Source of the DNA: Escherichia phage vB_EcoM-E33
Direction: 5' to 3' (one strand)
Sequence record: OL780484.1
DNA: 64,000 nucleotides
Shown here: positions 40,602 to 50,773 of the stretch, in pieces
Layout: every line of letters begins with the position of its first letter
How positions within the stretch are numbered: position 1 is the first letter of the stretch
Notes under the pieces: generated by a model
What the model saw: only the letters and a program-made list of their open reading frames with translations
Told to the model about the DNA's origin: nothing
Database searches by the model: none
Position numbers and translations under genes: made by a program

Positions 40602-40971
40602 TTTCGTACCCAGTCGAGGGTCTGAAGTGGATTCTTATATTGGTTGGCTACTGGTTTCTTTAGCCTATTTTAAGTCAGCCCATTTAGAAACCAAAAGCTA
40701 TGCAAGACACAAAGCGTATGACTTCTATTATGTAGAAGTTCAAGGACCACTGGACCAATTTAGTGAGCAATATCTTGGATTCAGTGGCAAAGAATATAAA
40801 GCATCATTACCGTCTGCTTCAGACTTGCCTAAGGACCCTGTAGATTTCCTTGACGAGCTTCTTAAAGCATCTGATAAAATCTATGATACCCTTCCCAAGG
40901 CCATCCAGTCGACTTTGGACGATATCACTGGCGTCTTTTACCAGACTAAGTATTTGCTGACGTTAGAATAA
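40588..40971 (+). CDS. hypothetical protein
   Basis: 127 aa; overlaps the upstream gene end; followed by a terminator. Confidence 0.5.
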   Translation: MKFNDFVPSRGSEVDSYIGWLLVSLAYFKSAHLETKSYARHKAYDFYYVEVQGPLDQFSEQYLGFSGKEYKASLPSASDLPKDPVDFLDELLKASDKIYDTLPKAIQSTLDDITGVFYQTKYLLTLE

Positions 40972-40976
40972 TCAAA

Positions 40977-41002
40977 GGTCTCACTTCGGTGGGACCTTTT
41001 TT
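40977..41002 (+). terminator. rho-independent terminator
   Basis: ggtctcac-ttcg-gtgggacc hairpin followed by tttttt. Confidence 0.7.
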
Positions 41003-41011
41003 CGTTTAGGT

Positions 41012-41040
41012 GTTTACATCCTCTAGGAACATGATACTAT
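41012..41040 (+). promoter_or_regulatory. early promoter cassette
   Basis: GTTTAC 41012-41017, 17 nt, TACTAT 41035-41040, then agacctatcaa. Confidence 0.6.
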
Positions 41041-41068: not shown

Positions 41069-41305
41069 ATGAAACTTACAAGTACTACGGTTTCATTAGA
41101 ATATGAAATCAACGGTCGTATCCTTGAGATTAAGATATTCGACGACCGAAGTATCTTCGCTGATTATCGAGGATACAGAATTCGTCTAGAAAAGGACGAG
41201 CTCAAGGAACCGTGGCTCCTTAAAGACACATTAAAGGGATGTGGATGTAAACTGAATACAGCCCAGGCCCAGGAATTGATTTCTAACATTAACAAATATT
41301 GGTGA
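41069..41305 (+). CDS. hypothetical protein
   Basis: SD gaggag then ATG; 78 aa. Confidence 0.5.
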   Translation: MKLTSTTVSLEYEINGRILEIKIFDDRSIFADYRGYRIRLEKDELKEPWLLKDTLKGCGCKLNTAQAQELISNINKYW

Positions 41306-41309
41306 TATT

Positions 41310-41492
41310 ATGTTAACTACTGAACAGATTGAACAAATCCTTAAACTCGCTACTGCTATTGAACGGGATTCTTATGATATTGCAGTAGAACATTGCGAAG
41401 GCTATTCATATTCCGGAATAGAGCAGTGTAAACGAGATTTGGCTAACTCTAAAGCAGCATTGGTTGAGTATCTTAATGAGTTGAAAGCATAA
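41310..41492 (+). CDS. hypothetical protein
   Basis: 60 aa, tightly packed. Confidence 0.45.
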   Translation: MLTTEQIEQILKLATAIERDSYDIAVEHCEGYSYSGIEQCKRDLANSKAALVEYLNELKA

Positions 41493-41749
41493 TGGCTGTC
41501 GGTTTTGCGAAGGATGGAGCCGAACAGCTCGAAATGGAAGCTGTTGTACAAGCCGCTATCACCCATGCGAGAGCACAAGTGGCTGTTGAACGTGAATCCT
41601 CTGAATTCTGTTTTGACTGCGACGAAAAAATTCCTGAAGCGCGGAGACAAGCGATTAAAGGTGTGATATATTGTGTTGGTTGTCAATCAATGCATGATAA
41701 AATTTTTAAACGTGAGCCACGAAATTGTTGGCACAGGAGCATGAGATGA
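41492..41749 (+). CDS. TraR/DksA-like C4 zinc-finger protein
   Basis: CFDC-x5-IPEARRQAIKGVIY-CVGC: C-x2-C-x17-C-x2-C with the IPEARR motif typical of the TraR/DksA zinc finger. Confidence 0.6.
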   Translation: MAVGFAKDGAEQLEMEAVVQAAITHARAQVAVERESSEFCFDCDEKIPEARRQAIKGVIYCVGCQSMHDKIFKREPRNCWHRSMR

Positions 41750-41840
41750 TTTACTATCTTGAACCTTGGGCTTGGTTAACAATGACCGTAGGGCCTGTTT
41801 TAATTGGTTTATTCTTTTCGTGGTTGGCGAGGAAACTGTA
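41746..41840 (+). CDS. possible 31-aa hydrophobic peptide (not in ORF track)
   Basis: ATG 41746 overlaps the upstream stop (ATGA); MIYYLEPWAWLTMTVGPVLIGLFFSWLARKL; its TAA is followed immediately by the next ATG. Confidence 0.35.
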
Positions 41841-42038
41841 ATGTTATATGACCCGAGTGGTAATTCTGAAGATGGTATTATTGTCCTCTTGGCAGATGTT
41901 GAAGAATCCGACGATGACATCTTTGTTAAAGATTGGGAAGAAAAAGGTGGAATCACGCTCCAACAAGAAAATGATATGATTTGTCTGAATGCAAGCCAAG
42001 TTGAAGAGCTTTATAGTATTTTAAAACATAACCGTTGA
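41841..42038 (+). CDS. small acidic hypothetical protein
   Basis: ATG 41841 after ggcgaggaaactgta (MLYDPSGN...); ORF-track start 41766. Confidence 0.5.
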   Translation: MLYDPSGNSEDGIIVLLADVEESDDDIFVKDWEEKGGITLQQENDMICLNASQVEELYSILKHNR

Positions 42039-42619: not shown

Positions 42620-43078
42620 ATGATTATCAATGCAAACTCTTGGCATGTTAAACTACATGACCGTTTTTATGCCAGTTATTCACGTCCGCGCTCATTATGC
42701 GCATACTTCTGGAAAATGGTTTGGGCGTGCTTTATATGTTCTGTGCTTGCAGGTAGTACTATTTTCGGCTTAACTGTTGCAGGTGCCGGTATATTGGAGC
42801 AGTTCTTTGTATTGAGTACTCCTGTTGGTTTAAGTTTAGGTTTTATTTTAGGACTGGTTACACTAGCTCTTATTCTAGCGGTAGCCGTTGGTATTGTGTA
42901 TTGTATAATGAATTTATGGTCCTGGTATGATTTACGTAAAGAAGAAAAGGAATGGCTACTAATTAAAGCTAAACGTGAAGGAAAGGAAATTAAAGAAAAT
43001 ATCGTTATTCAATATATCAAAGCTCGTAAATCTAAGGTCTGCCCTGTAATCCACTTCGAGAACAAAACAAACCCATAA
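42620..43078 (+). CDS. integral membrane protein
   Basis: Several hydrophobic helices (FWKMVWACFICSVLAGSTIFGLTVAG, PVGLSLGFILGLVTLALILAVAVGIVYCI). Confidence 0.55.
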   Translation: MIINANSWHVKLHDRFYASYSRPRSLCAYFWKMVWACFICSVLAGSTIFGLTVAGAGILEQFFVLSTPVGLSLGFILGLVTLALILAVAVGIVYCIMNLWSWYDLRKEEKEWLLIKAKREGKEIKENIVIQYIKARKSKVCPVIHFENKTNP

Positions 43079-43842
43079 TGAATTATACCAAGCTTTATGA
43101 TAGTCTAATCCAAAGAGGTAAACTTAGAGGATTAGACAAATCCAAATTAAATTTTTATACAGAGTCCCATCATATACTCCCATCATGTATTGGTGGGAGT
43201 GATGAACCTAATAATTTAGTTCTGTTGACAGCCAGAGAACATTTTATAGCACACTGGCTTCTAGCTAGAATTCATTCTGATTCTTCTGGACTAATTTATG
43301 CTTGGTGGTCGTTTTATAGCTTCGGTGAGGATTCTCTAGGAAGAAATCTTAAACTAACTTCTAGAGGATACCAATTAGTTAGAGAAAAATTTTCAGAAAT
43401 TCATTCAAATGCGATGAAAGAAATATGGAAGACTGAAGAGTATAGAAATAAACGTTCTATAACTATGAGTCTACCGGAAATAAAAGATAAAATGTCTGCC
43501 GCTCAAATAGAAGCTCAAAACCGTCCTGAAGTTAAAGAGAAAATTTCTAAAGCTATTAAAGAAGCATTTAAACGCCCTGATGTTAGAGAAAGGCATTCTA
43601 ATGCTGTTAAGAAATCTCTAAATAATCCGGAAACTAAAAAGAGGCAATCTGATGCTTCTAAAGCAAAGCAAAGAATAGGAAAACATTGGCAAGATTATGA
43701 TTTGCTTTATTCTTTATGGGTTAAATTAAATAGGCCTAAGCGTGGGGCTTTTGGTACTTATATTAGTAAATTAGGATATCCCAAATCTAACTACCAACGT
43801 TTAATTATGCAATTTATTGAAGACTATGAAAGAGGTGAATAA
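43078..43842 (+). CDS. HNH homing endonuclease (free-standing), copy 2
   Basis: YTESHHILPSCIGGSDEPNNLVLLTAREHFIAH HNH motif; N-terminal ~60 aa paralogous to the 19620 endonuclease; C-terminal repeats NRPEVKEKISKAIK / RPDVRERHSNAVKK / NPETKKRQSDASK. Confidence 0.8.
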   Translation: MNYTKLYDSLIQRGKLRGLDKSKLNFYTESHHILPSCIGGSDEPNNLVLLTAREHFIAHWLLARIHSDSSGLIYAWWSFYSFGEDSLGRNLKLTSRGYQLVREKFSEIHSNAMKEIWKTEEYRNKRSITMSLPEIKDKMSAAQIEAQNRPEVKEKISKAIKEAFKRPDVRERHSNAVKKSLNNPETKKRQSDASKAKQRIGKHWQDYDLLYSLWVKLNRPKRGAFGTYISKLGYPKSNYQRLIMQFIEDYERGE

Positions 43843-49454: not shown

Positions 49455-50465
49455 ATGACTCGTACTGAATACATCAATGCCTTTACTACGTATATCACTA
49501 CCAACACCCCTCCGTTAACCCCATACGAGGTAATAGTTTCTAATATCAATAAATGGGTCGACCAAATTGATGATGCATTATCGCGCTGTTTCAAAGCTGA
49601 AATCGAAAAGATTGCAGGCCGTTTGTGCATTCATGATATCATTAAAACATTTAAAGGTTCTCGACTGCTTTCGCGCCTGGTCAATAAGGACATCCTTTCT
49701 GAGTTCGGTAAAGAGAAATATCCAGGTTCCAACCGTGTTGTTAGCTACAAATGGTTTGGTGATACCATAAAAGGTTATATCAAAATTAAAGGTATGGACC
49801 CTAATAGTTTATTTCCGCAACGTTGGGTTAGCGAATTCAAGGCTAACTCTGCATTAATTCTCAAAGCGGCCTCTAAAACTATAGTTTCCGGTGATTGTCG
49901 TACTATTCACCCGATGGCTAATTGCATGATTAAAACAAATAGTTATAAAGGAAAAGCTATTATTTCTGTTATTTGGTCACCTAATAGGAAACCTAAAGAT
50001 GATGCGGAAGTTGTAAAGTATCAAGATATTGCTTACGATACCTTGAATACTATCGAACAAGCTTTAGCTCTGATGGATACCGTAGAGAAATATGAGACCC
50101 AAGAAGTTAAACACCACTTAGGCTGGAAAGGATATGAGGTCTTAGTAACAGTCCGTGAAATCAAATGTACCGTTCCAAAAACTGATGCTGAAATTTACAA
50201 AGAAAAATGTGAGGAAATTGTGAACACTGATAAAGAGCCTGCTACATTAGAAGATTTGATTAACGACTTGAACAGCCCTATCATGGCCCCTACACCAATT
50301 ACTAAATCCAAGTTACCGGAAGTCGTTGCCTTGGAAAAAGCGTATAAAGACGCCCTTGCTATCAACAAAAAACTGACTGGCCAATATACTGCTGCCAAGA
50401 AACTTTGGGAAGAGTCTACCAATCGTTTAGACCGTCTTGAACAGGCTCTGGAGCTGCTGAAATGA
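49455..50465 (+). CDS. hypothetical protein
   Basis: 336 aa; SD gaggag then ATG. Confidence 0.55.
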   Translation: MTRTEYINAFTTYITTNTPPLTPYEVIVSNINKWVDQIDDALSRCFKAEIEKIAGRLCIHDIIKTFKGSRLLSRLVNKDILSEFGKEKYPGSNRVVSYKWFGDTIKGYIKIKGMDPNSLFPQRWVSEFKANSALILKAASKTIVSGDCRTIHPMANCMIKTNSYKGKAIISVIWSPNRKPKDDAEVVKYQDIAYDTLNTIEQALALMDTVEKYETQEVKHHLGWKGYEVLVTVREIKCTVPKTDAEIYKEKCEEIVNTDKEPATLEDLINDLNSPIMAPTPITKSKLPEVVALEKAYKDALAINKKLTGQYTAAKKLWEESTNRLDRLEQALELLK

Positions 50466-50773
50466 AACAACGTTTAGCTGAAGATATTGCTTCAGCATCT
50501 AATACTGGTTTATTGAAATTTATTAAAGCCGCGGATGTTGAAGTTGAATTGGTTGGTAAAATTCATGGTTGTGATGATTATGATGATGCCGTTAATTGGG
50601 ATGCTGTAATGGCTATGGTCGCACGACGAGAACAAGCTTCTAAGAATGTTCCTAACTGTCCTAAGTGCGGCACAGAACAGGTTCAATTGGTCCATTGGCA
50701 GACTAGTAATCTTCGTTACAAATGCCGCCATTGTAAACATAAATTTGAGCGAGAAGAAAATGGCAAAGCGTAA
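50462..50773 (+). CDS. small C4 zinc-ribbon protein
   Basis: CPKC-x16-CRHC near the C-terminus; ATGA overlap with upstream gene. Confidence 0.5.

Follow-up and report, generated by a model that had tools for sequence, protein, structure and literature searches.

The 64,000-nucleotide (nt) stretch of Escherichia phage vB_EcoM-E33 analyzed here (sequence record OL780484.1; hereafter, the window) carries, between positions 41492 and 41841, 2 overlapping small genes, one encoding an 85-amino-acid (aa) zinc-finger protein of the DksA/TraR family and the other a hydrophobic peptide of 31 codons. The source phage is a T4-like member of the genus Dhakavirus, close to JS10, JS98, and WG01. A search with the 1.8 kb around both genes matched 117 phage records at 80% to 95% identity, nearly all of them from T4-like Escherichia phages, including JS10, JS98, WG01, and QL01 of the genus Dhakavirus. 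An earlier note, made from the sequence alone, had read the locus as a zinc-finger protein that could redirect host transcription, followed by an unannotated and translationally coupled membrane peptide. We found both to be ordinary, frequently lost early accessory genes, already catalogued in PHROGs and GenBank. Their features are as follows, with the type of evidence given in brackets.

41492..41749, + strand: gene for the 85-aa YbiI-subfamily DksA/TraR C4 zinc-finger protein (open reading frame [ORF] translation, Pfam, PHROG, PDB match, AlphaFold2)
41609..41611, 41618..41620, 41672..41674, and 41681..41683, + strand: codons of the zinc ligands C40, C43, C61, and C64 of the zinc-finger protein
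41735..41739, + strand: Shine-Dalgarno (SD) sequence AGGAG of the peptide gene, 6 nt before its ATG and inside the codons of the zinc-finger tail (read off the sequence)
41746..41841, + strand: gene for the 31-codon hydrophobic peptide MIYYLEPWAWLTMTVGPVLIGLFFSWLARKL, phrog_12165 (PHROG, tblastn, ratio of nonsynonymous to synonymous polymorphism [pN/pS], AlphaFold2)

A zinc-finger protein of the YbiI subfamily

The 85-codon ORF, which ends with a TGA stop at 41747–41749, translates to MAVGFAKDGAEQLEMEAVVQAAITHARAQVAVERESSEFCFDCDEKIPEARRQAIKGVIYCVGCQSMHDKIFKREPRNCWHRSMR. The signature on which the earlier note was built is present as described, with CFDC followed by exactly 17 residues and then by CVGC, together with the motif IPEARRQAIKGVIY, and the 4 cysteines are invariant in 42 aligned homologs. 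The protein matches the Pfam family PF01258 (zf-dskA_traR) with 37 bits (E value 3.4e-9; gathering cut-off, 24.9) and phrog_54, "DksA-like zinc-finger protein," at 2.3e-20, and hhalign comparison of the phage/YbiI profile with a TraR profile, built for this purpose after the TraR sequence had been confirmed against the database, yielded a homology probability of 98.9%. The AlphaFold2 model, based on the 42 homologs, consists of a helix spanning residues 6 to 28, a zinc ribbon, and a second helix spanning residues 62 to 71 (mean predicted local distance difference test [pLDDT] score, 73). The long N-terminal helix, zinc ribbon, and C-terminal helix of the DksA/TraR fold are, accordingly, all present in a model of moderate confidence. 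A Foldseek search with this model ranked E. coli YbiI (2kgo) first and RNA polymerase (RNAP)-bound TraR (6n57_M; template modeling score, 0.55) second, both with probability 1.0, followed by TraR 5w1s_M and then by DksA 7khi_M, the last match being weak (E value 0.4). The zinc-finger fold, the prediction of which had been proposed as a check, was thus obtained in its YbiI/TraR form, and membership in the DksA/TraR family, by sequence and predicted fold, is secure.

Within the family, the best NCBIfam model is the YbiI equivalog PRK11019/NF008243 (76.6 bits; cut-off, 96), ahead of the TraR subfamily TIGR02419 (52.4 bits; cut-off, 59.7), the TraR equivalog PRK13715 (30.7 bits; cut-off, 108), and DksA NF033459 (14.1 bits; cut-off, 105). 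The sequence search against PDB gave the same order, with YbiI 2kgo first (1.4e-9) and TraR 5w1s/6n57 next (approximately 1e-4; TraR, 9e-5). Judged by these sequence matches, the protein belongs to the YbiI subfamily and is not of the TraR or DksA type, so that the family named in the earlier note stands, on the evidence of Pfam, PHROG, NCBIfam, PDB, and the predicted fold, in a subfamily other than the 2 that had been named.

The N-terminal tip, MAVGFAKDGAEQ, is of the YbiI type. Across the 42 homologs, which include 85-aa phage proteins and 88-aa bacterial YbiI-type proteins, the N-terminus MAxGFAKDGAxQ is near-invariant, with M1, A2, and G4 unchanged throughout and F5 to A10 conserved in at least 90% of the sequences. 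The YbiI motif MA-x-G-[FW]-A-x-D-x-A is found as MAVGFAKDGA in the phage protein and as MASGWANDDA in YbiI. The C-terminal tail, FKREPRNCWHRSMR, follows the phage-type pattern FKR(E/D)PRNCWHRSMR, as opposed to GYNRRGSKDSQLR in bacterial YbiI; the stretch (E/D)PRNCWHRSMR occurs in all phage-type members and has only its final R in common with the bacterial tail. The phage tail is identical in Dhakavirus, Kanagawavirus, Marfavirus, and the jumbo Asteriusvirus, the proteins of which are otherwise approximately 65% identical, and among close relatives carrying the gene, pN/pS is 0.09 for the whole gene and 0.02 for the tail, indicative of strong purifying selection. Given this identity across genera and the low ratio, the tail is a functional part of the protein and not a mere carrier of the downstream SD.

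TraR and lambda Orf73 require an N-terminal DxxDxA motif (D3, D6, and A8), which reaches the RNAP active site; the substitutions D3N and D6N abolish activity, and homologs with an imperfect DxxDxA are weaker (PMC9239242). Residue S2 of TraR lies 4.3 Å from the catalytic Mg, and E46 and R49 contact Si3 of the RNAP beta-prime subunit (PMC6970531). With K50, they belong to the globular-domain residues of TraR that touch Si3 and the rim helices. According to phmmer, NF010268, and hhalign, which agree on the register, residue i of the phage protein corresponds to TraR residue i−3. The IPEARR segment is conserved in the phage protein, and TraR E46 and R49 correspond to the conserved E49 and R52, with K50 replaced by Q53, a pattern compatible, at the sequence level, with RNAP binding.

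A probable, conserved 31-codon gene

The peptide ORF begins with the ATG at 41746–41748, which overlaps the zinc-finger TGA as ATGA, and ends with the TAA at 41839–41841, the last A of which is also the first letter of the ATG of the next gene (41841), exactly the geometry reported in the earlier note. All 31 residues match positions 1 to 31 of the 31-position profile phrog_12165 (E value 4.7e-25), and tblastn recovered the peptide from 103 phage records, spanning the 3 genera Dhakavirus, Gaprivervirus, and Mosigvirus, with every match at 100% coverage and 80% to 100% identity. No stop codon or frameshift interrupts the ORF in these 103 records or in the 11 distinct DNA versions found at 17 loci, and its length is invariant. 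The 11 versions differ at 24 sites, distributed over codon positions 1, 2, and 3 as 8, 4, and 12, and pN/pS is 0.22, compared with 0.39 and 0.67 in the other 2 frames. The amino-acid changes are hydrophobic swaps, within residues 11 to 18 and at residue 28. Furthermore, the AGGAG sequence is kept in 18 of the 18 loci examined, including every deletion stub of the zinc-finger gene described below. AlphaFold2 predicts a single helix over residues 7 to 30 (24 residues; pLDDT 88.5), and the Kyte-Doolittle maximum over 19 residues is 1.63, the usual threshold for transmembrane segments being 1.6. The helix is flanked by E6 on its N-terminal side and R29-K30 on its C-terminal side; by the positive-inside rule, this would place the N-terminus outside and the C-terminus inside. 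Thus, sequence comparison makes it very likely that the 31-codon ORF is a real gene, as had been proposed.

The description of the ORF as unannotated applies to some of the relatives only. The peptide has been deposited as "hypothetical protein" in VR5, VR7, PhAPEC2, RPN187, SA35RD/SA79RD, UPEC01, UPEC07, and other phages, identical or near-identical proteins exist in GenBank, and the peptide has a PHROG family of its own; the annotators of JS10, JS98, UP19, dhabil, and WG01 skipped it. No Pfam or NCBIfam family matched the peptide, and HMMER, run exhaustively against 1.84 billion representatives, returned only its own cluster and 1 further protein. The latter (P0069, 1026 aa) is a tandem-repeat protein accumulating weak matches of 16 to 18 residues and was dismissed as spurious. 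A variant of 44 aa, extended by 13 residues through loss of the stop codon and read-through, is encoded on a metagenome contig from ENA (P0067).

The 2 genes are distributed independently

Comparison of the locus across related phages revealed 4 architectures. In the E33 window, JS10, UP19, dhabil, VR7, and UPEC07, the zinc-finger gene is followed by the peptide gene and then by a gene encoding a DUF7189 protein. In WG01, QL01, IME281, IME341, and others, only 7 codons are left of the zinc-finger gene as a stub (MAVGIGA* or a variant of it); the SD and the peptide gene are intact. In Mosigvirus, a 54-aa chimera, in which the N-terminus of DUF7189 is joined to residues 57 to 85 of the zinc-finger protein, precedes an intact peptide gene. 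Finally, the zinc-finger gene is present without the peptide gene in Kanagawavirus, where DUF7189 follows directly, and in Marfavirus, Asteriusvirus, Karamvirus, and Aeromonas phage 31, where unrelated genes follow. In a DNA-level search, 53 records contained the zinc-finger gene and 100 contained the peptide region, and approximately half of the peptide-bearing phages have lost the zinc finger, retaining either the stub or the chimera. As each gene is present without the other in related phages, the zinc-finger gene and the peptide gene are, on this comparative evidence, independent and not a functional pair, contrary to the partnership implied by the earlier note.

The WG01-type stubs (L003:2094-2118 as well as L016, L017, and L018) correspond to a deletion between 2 short similar sequences, GCTGTCGG at the start of the gene and TTGTTGGCA at its end. 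The resulting 7-codon mini-ORF keeps the TAATG overlap with the upstream gene mobD.3 and stops 1 to 2 nt before the peptide ATG; its sequence drifts, codon 3 being GTC, GGT, or GAT depending on the phage. The Mosigvirus chimera (phrog_25948; SA35RD, L004:540-704, and ZQ3, L005:540-704) has approximately 25 DUF7189-like residues at its start and contains only the second CxxC pair. Its tail, FKREPRNCWHRSMR, is kept in the protein despite synonymous changes in the DNA, a hint that selection still acts on the tail or on translation through it.

Set against the junction in Kanagawavirus, where the zinc-finger stop and the start of DUF7189 adjoin, the peptide ORF resembles a clean insert of approximately 95 nt between the two. 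An origin of the 96-nt ORF by local duplication was considered and rejected: none of its local alignments with DUF7189, the zinc-finger gene, mobD.3, the remainder of the operon, and the junctions of Kanagawavirus scored outside the distributions obtained with shuffled sequences.

The probable early operon and translational coupling

The gene order in the region is tk, a hypothetical gene, rI (antiholin), rI.-1, a 78-aa ORF, mobD.3 (DUF7438), the zinc-finger gene, the 31-codon ORF, DUF7189, mobD.1 (y05I), a membrane protein gene, a homing endonuclease gene, and nrdC.11. The features flanking the 2 genes are the following.

40974..40999, + strand: intrinsic terminator with an 11-bp stem followed by a T run, closing the upstream rI/rI.-1 unit (terminator scan)
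41012..41040, + strand: T4 early-type sigma-70 promoter GTTTAC-N14-TGATACTAT, the predicted start of the operon with both genes (consensus match)
41069..41305, + strand: first gene of the operon, 78 aa, phrog_10363 (1e-52; PHROG profile match)
41310..41492, + strand: mobD.3 homolog, DUF7438, 60 aa, the TAA of which overlaps the zinc-finger ATG as TAATG (Pfam and annotation of relatives)
41829..41833, + strand: SD sequence GAGGA of the DUF7189 gene, inside the peptide codons A28-R29-K30 (read off the sequence)
41841..42038, + strand: DUF7189 gene, 65 aa (Pfam, PHROG)

The promoter scan described the site at 41012–41040 as TTTACA-16-TACTAT with an extended −10 TG, and the authors of the phage SA35RD genome annotated a T4 early promoter at the equivalent place, which also has a homologous terminator. 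The scan detected no terminator-like site between the early promoter and the zinc-finger and peptide genes. From the upstream terminator, the early-type promoter, and the uninterrupted stretch that follows, all of them consensus matches, both genes are probably early genes transcribed by the unmodified host RNAP. A putative internal promoter at 41728–41757 (TTGGCA-18-TACTAT; 9 of 12 consensus positions) was attributed to chance, the scan having returned 18 sites where 11.2 were expected. The GAGGAAA stretch containing the DUF7189 SD is invariant in the alignment of the related loci.

The stop-start overlap typical of translational coupling is present, as ATGA at 41746–41749. However, ATGA or one-base overlaps are found at many junctions of this gene array (32115, 32705, 36613, 38526, 41492, 43078, 43842, and 50462, among others), and the geometry is therefore not distinctive. 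Signs that the peptide depends on translation of the zinc-finger gene are lacking: the AGGAG is strong and lies 6 nt from the start codon, folding revealed no mRNA structure hiding the peptide start beyond that of shuffled controls (z −0.98 and 0.04), and the ORF is still there where only a 7-codon stub precedes it. Given the strong, ideally spaced SD and folding energies no different from those of shuffled sequences, the peptide can probably be initiated alone. Thus, of the coupling inferred in the earlier note, the overlap that would permit it is real, and coupling to the zinc-finger gene is possible but unnecessary. No good SD precedes the zinc-finger gene (GAGTTGAAAGCATAATG), and its start lies in the TAATG overlap with mobD.3 at 41492; true translational coupling is therefore more plausible for this gene than for the peptide gene. 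In phage dhabil, the zinc-finger start codon is GTG.

Several minor observations concern the neighboring genes. The terminator hairpin after rI.-1 (40941–41007, + strand) gave a sub-threshold Rfam match to the small RNA STnc100 (32 bits; gathering cut-off, 47), which most likely reflects only the terminator stem-loop; apart from it and 1 chance match to a small nucleolar RNA, the Rfam search identified no known RNA family in the region. The homolog of the 78-aa first gene is annotated in UP19 and WG01 and left out in JS10. In UPEC07, this homolog is labeled "valyl-tRNA synthetase modifier" and mobD.3 "molybdopterin-guanine dinucleotide biosynthesis protein," both evidently propagated misannotations. 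A 254-aa HNH-type homing endonuclease (43078–43842, + strand; phrog_655, 6e-56; no Pfam match) is encoded between the membrane protein gene and nrdC.11, the position of mobD in T4. JS10, UP19, and WG01 lack the endonuclease gene at this place, and it thus looks like a mobile insertion distinguishing E33 from its closest relatives.

Proposed roles and alternatives

We favor, with somewhat better than even confidence, a reading in which the locus holds 2 separate accessory genes of one early operon, the first encoding a protein that docks on RNAP in the manner of TraR and the second a single-pass peptide of the inner membrane. The zinc-finger protein would appear within the first minutes of infection, its gene being transcribed by the unmodified host sigma-70 RNAP. 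Its zinc-ribbon domain, with the IPEARR segment, would dock at the beta-prime rim helices and Si3, as in TraR, and its N-terminal helix would be inserted into the secondary channel, shifting host promoter use in favor of the phage. Taken by itself, docking on RNAP as TraR does, with a probably different effect on the enzyme, seems to us an even call; the effect would probably differ because the tip, MAVGFAKDGAEQ, is not DxxDxA and because the protein has an extra conserved basic tail. The binding to the secondary channel and the redirection of host transcription put forward in the earlier note are accordingly treated here as a conjecture, the protein being of the YbiI subfamily and devoid of DxxDxA. 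The peptide would span the inner membrane once, with a periplasmic N-terminus and the RK-bearing C-terminus in the cytoplasm. It would be translated from its own AGGAG, possibly aided by ribosomes terminating on the upstream ORF, and would most likely bind, within the bilayer, a membrane protein of either the host or the phage. The 2 genes would be adjacent by history rather than by function, and neither would be essential.

Several observations weigh against this reading. DxxDxA is absent, TraR D3, D6, and A8 falling on A6, G9, and E11 of the phage protein, and the N-terminal 17 residues cannot be aligned with TraR, the hhalign alignment beginning at V18 of the phage protein and L15 of TraR. 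The phage protein has D8-x-x-E11-x-L13, which is 2 residues out of the TraR register, and bacterial YbiI-type proteins carry V at position 11. The score of the phage protein lies under the NCBIfam cut-offs for the TraR, YbiI, and DksA equivalogs alike, and the structural model is of moderate confidence (predicted template modeling score, 0.49, at the pLDDT of 73), with the tip and the tail poorly predicted. No published RNAP-binding data for any YbiI-type protein were found in the literature. As for the peptide, its hydrophobicity is barely above the transmembrane threshold, a Gly-Pro pair lies in the middle of the helix, and its synonymous diversity (pS 0.26) is lower than that of the zinc-finger gene (0.43). 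This lower pS, together with the last codons doubling as the DUF7189 SD, suggests that some of the conservation of the peptide is at the nucleotide level. Furthermore, in 1 phage (IMGVR_UViG_2974741249_000001; L023:791-835), the only locus seen with a truncated peptide ORF, the latter is cut to 14 codons and approximately the first 34 residues of DUF7189 are gone as well, making this phage a natural peptide knock-out.

The zinc-finger protein might not be an RNAP effector at all, its YbiI fold acting instead, through its own tip and tail, on another target, either protein or nucleic acid. Such a role is in line with the lack of DxxDxA, with an N-terminus that does not align with that of TraR, and with the invariant motifs specific to the subfamily (MAxGFAKDGAxQ and the conserved tail), which are shared or parallel in bacterial YbiI and phages. 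In the literature, the only functional statement on YbiI that we found is a single sentence, according to which its overexpression rescues the amino-acid auxotrophy of a dksA mutant ("data not shown"), and its authors considered a role in iron metabolism more likely (PMC2613031). The search for literature on the function of YbiI or PA4870, or on T4-like DksA-like proteins, otherwise returned nothing. The reported rescue nevertheless speaks for an action on RNAP, as do the conserved globular domain, with the IPEARR residues through which TraR contacts RNAP, and the superposition of the predicted fold on RNAP-bound TraR. Moreover, bacterial YbiI-type genes sit alone, and the conserved neighbors that we looked for as pointers to another pathway were not found. 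On balance, a target other than RNAP is a serious possibility, if a clearly less probable one than docking. The phage YbiI-type proteins, with the MAVGFAKDGAEQ tip and the Cys/Trp/His basic tail, could form a distinct class of RNAP secondary-channel proteins and the peptide, separately, a new effector of the host membrane. The tip, 3 residues longer in register and carrying a D-x-x-E pair, could then, with the tail, reach or plug the active site, and the outcome could be unlike the DksA/TraR program, for instance, host shut-off or altered elongation or cleavage. We regard this as speculative and rather unlikely.

For the 31-codon ORF, one alternative is that it has no functional product and that the stretch is maintained as spacer or regulatory DNA, for the DUF7189 SD or an internal promoter, with an incidental reading frame. 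A 31-codon open frame is very short and by itself not rare in AT-rich DNA, the 3′ end of this one holds the SD of the next gene, its synonymous diversity is below that of the zinc-finger gene, a weak promoter-like match lies at 41728–41757, most of the ORF is deleted in one phage, and many annotators skipped it. The promoter match is nonetheless of the kind expected by chance (18 sites against 11.2), and the coding signals speak against an incidental frame: variation is weighted toward third positions, pN/pS of 0.22 is below that of both alternative frames, replacements stay hydrophobic, neither stops nor frameshifts occur in 103 records and 11 DNA versions of invariant length, and the ATG and SD survive 3 different rearrangements of the upstream gene. 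We hold a frame without a product to be improbable. More improbable still, and largely refuted by the distribution, is a functional pair in which peptide synthesis depends on zinc-finger translation and the 2 products act together. The ATGA overlap would fit such a pair, as would the finding that the peptide ATG is preceded, in all architectures seen, by some ORF that ends at it or no more than 2 nt away, but related phages carry either gene alone, no significant structure masks the peptide start, which has a strong and optimally spaced SD, and stop-start overlaps are commonplace in this genome. A third view, that the peptide damages the membrane or times lysis, as a type-I-toxin-like or holin/antiholin-like pore former, draws on its single hydrophobic helix and charged C-terminus, as in small toxins, and on the rI antiholin gene located approximately 1.1 kb upstream. 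However, rI belongs to a different transcription unit, separated by the terminator and the early promoter, and an early pore former would be counterproductive for the phage. In addition, the Pfam, PHROG, NCBIfam, and HMMER searches revealed no similarity to holin, antiholin, or toxin families, and T4, the model for lysis inhibition, lacks the peptide. A pore former is thus unlikely. The single-pass membrane peptide acting on another membrane protein remains the reading that we prefer for this gene.

Comparison with known systems

E. coli YbiI (2kgo; PRK11019/NF008243) is the protein that the zinc-finger protein matches best, in sequence as well as in fold; P. aeruginosa PA4870 belongs to the same comparison. 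The proteins are of the same length class and share the N-terminal motif and the zinc ribbon with IPEARR. The phage protein differs in scoring below the equivalog cut-off, in its tail (FKREPRNCWHRSMR instead of GYNRRGSKDSQLR), in having E rather than V at position 11, and in being encoded by a lytic phage rather than a chromosome. TraR and 5 phage homologs bind RNAP and reprogram transcription (PMC9239242). F-plasmid TraR and its phage homologs, such as lambda Orf73, P2 Orf82, VP882 Orf61, and VHML Orf8, have the same layout of N-terminal helix, zinc globule, and C-terminal helix as that predicted for the present protein. The phage protein resembles TraR as a small protein of a mobile element that keeps the residues equivalent to E46 and R49, whereas it lacks DxxDxA, is 3 residues longer in register at the N-terminus, and has an extra conserved tail of 14 residues. 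Furthermore, the homologs tested all come from temperate phages or plasmids, whereas the present protein is from a virulent T4-like phage. By analogy, secondary-channel binding, experimentally demonstrated for TraR homologs, is a plausible best working model for the phage protein. DksA belongs to the same Pfam family, PF01258, but is a protein of approximately 150 aa, with a long coiled coil carrying the DxxDxA tip, and acts with guanosine tetraphosphate (ppGpp), whereas the phage protein, at 85 aa, has a single helix. Reprogramming of the host RNAP by TraR homologs of temperate phages and plasmids is known to work without ppGpp.

Small single-pass membrane peptides that modulate larger membrane proteins include AcrZ, MgrB, MgtS, and Gp11 of phage PhiNM1. 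The 31-aa peptide resembles them in size (approximately 30 to 50 aa), in its predicted hydrophobic helix with a charged, putatively cytoplasmic end, and in its location in a compact operon, but its sequence is not similar to that of any of them. The zinc-finger gene, the 31-aa peptide, and DUF7189 are all absent from T4, which carries, at the equivalent position between mobD.3 and mobD.1, the tiny ORFs mobD.2 (34 aa) and mobD.2a (38 aa), of which mobD.2 is also hydrophobic. Homology of the peptide to mobD.2 or mobD.2a was considered and rejected, the sequences being unrelated.

The immediate significance of the locus is modest, because both genes are catalogued and frequently lost accessory genes. 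The interest that remains lies in the uncharacterized YbiI subfamily, a group common among the virulent T4-like and jumbo phages of Enterobacteria, Aeromonas, and Acinetobacter (770 phage records), and in the natural variants, which ease tests of both genes: phages without the zinc-finger gene and 1 phage without the peptide constitute ready genetic controls. To our knowledge, no member of the subfamily, bacterial or phage, has been characterized. If an effect of the tip and tail on RNAP were demonstrated, it would represent an added layer in the takeover of host transcription by T4-type phages and provide a function for E. coli YbiI. The 31-aa peptide, in turn, illustrates well how inconsistently annotation pipelines handle a conserved orphan micro-gene.

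The window contains no paralog of either gene. A second C4 zinc-ribbon ORF, unrelated to the first, is located at 50462–50773 (+ strand) and encodes a 103-aa protein with the signature CPKC-x18-CRHC, matched by zinc-ribbon families of Pfam only weakly and below threshold.

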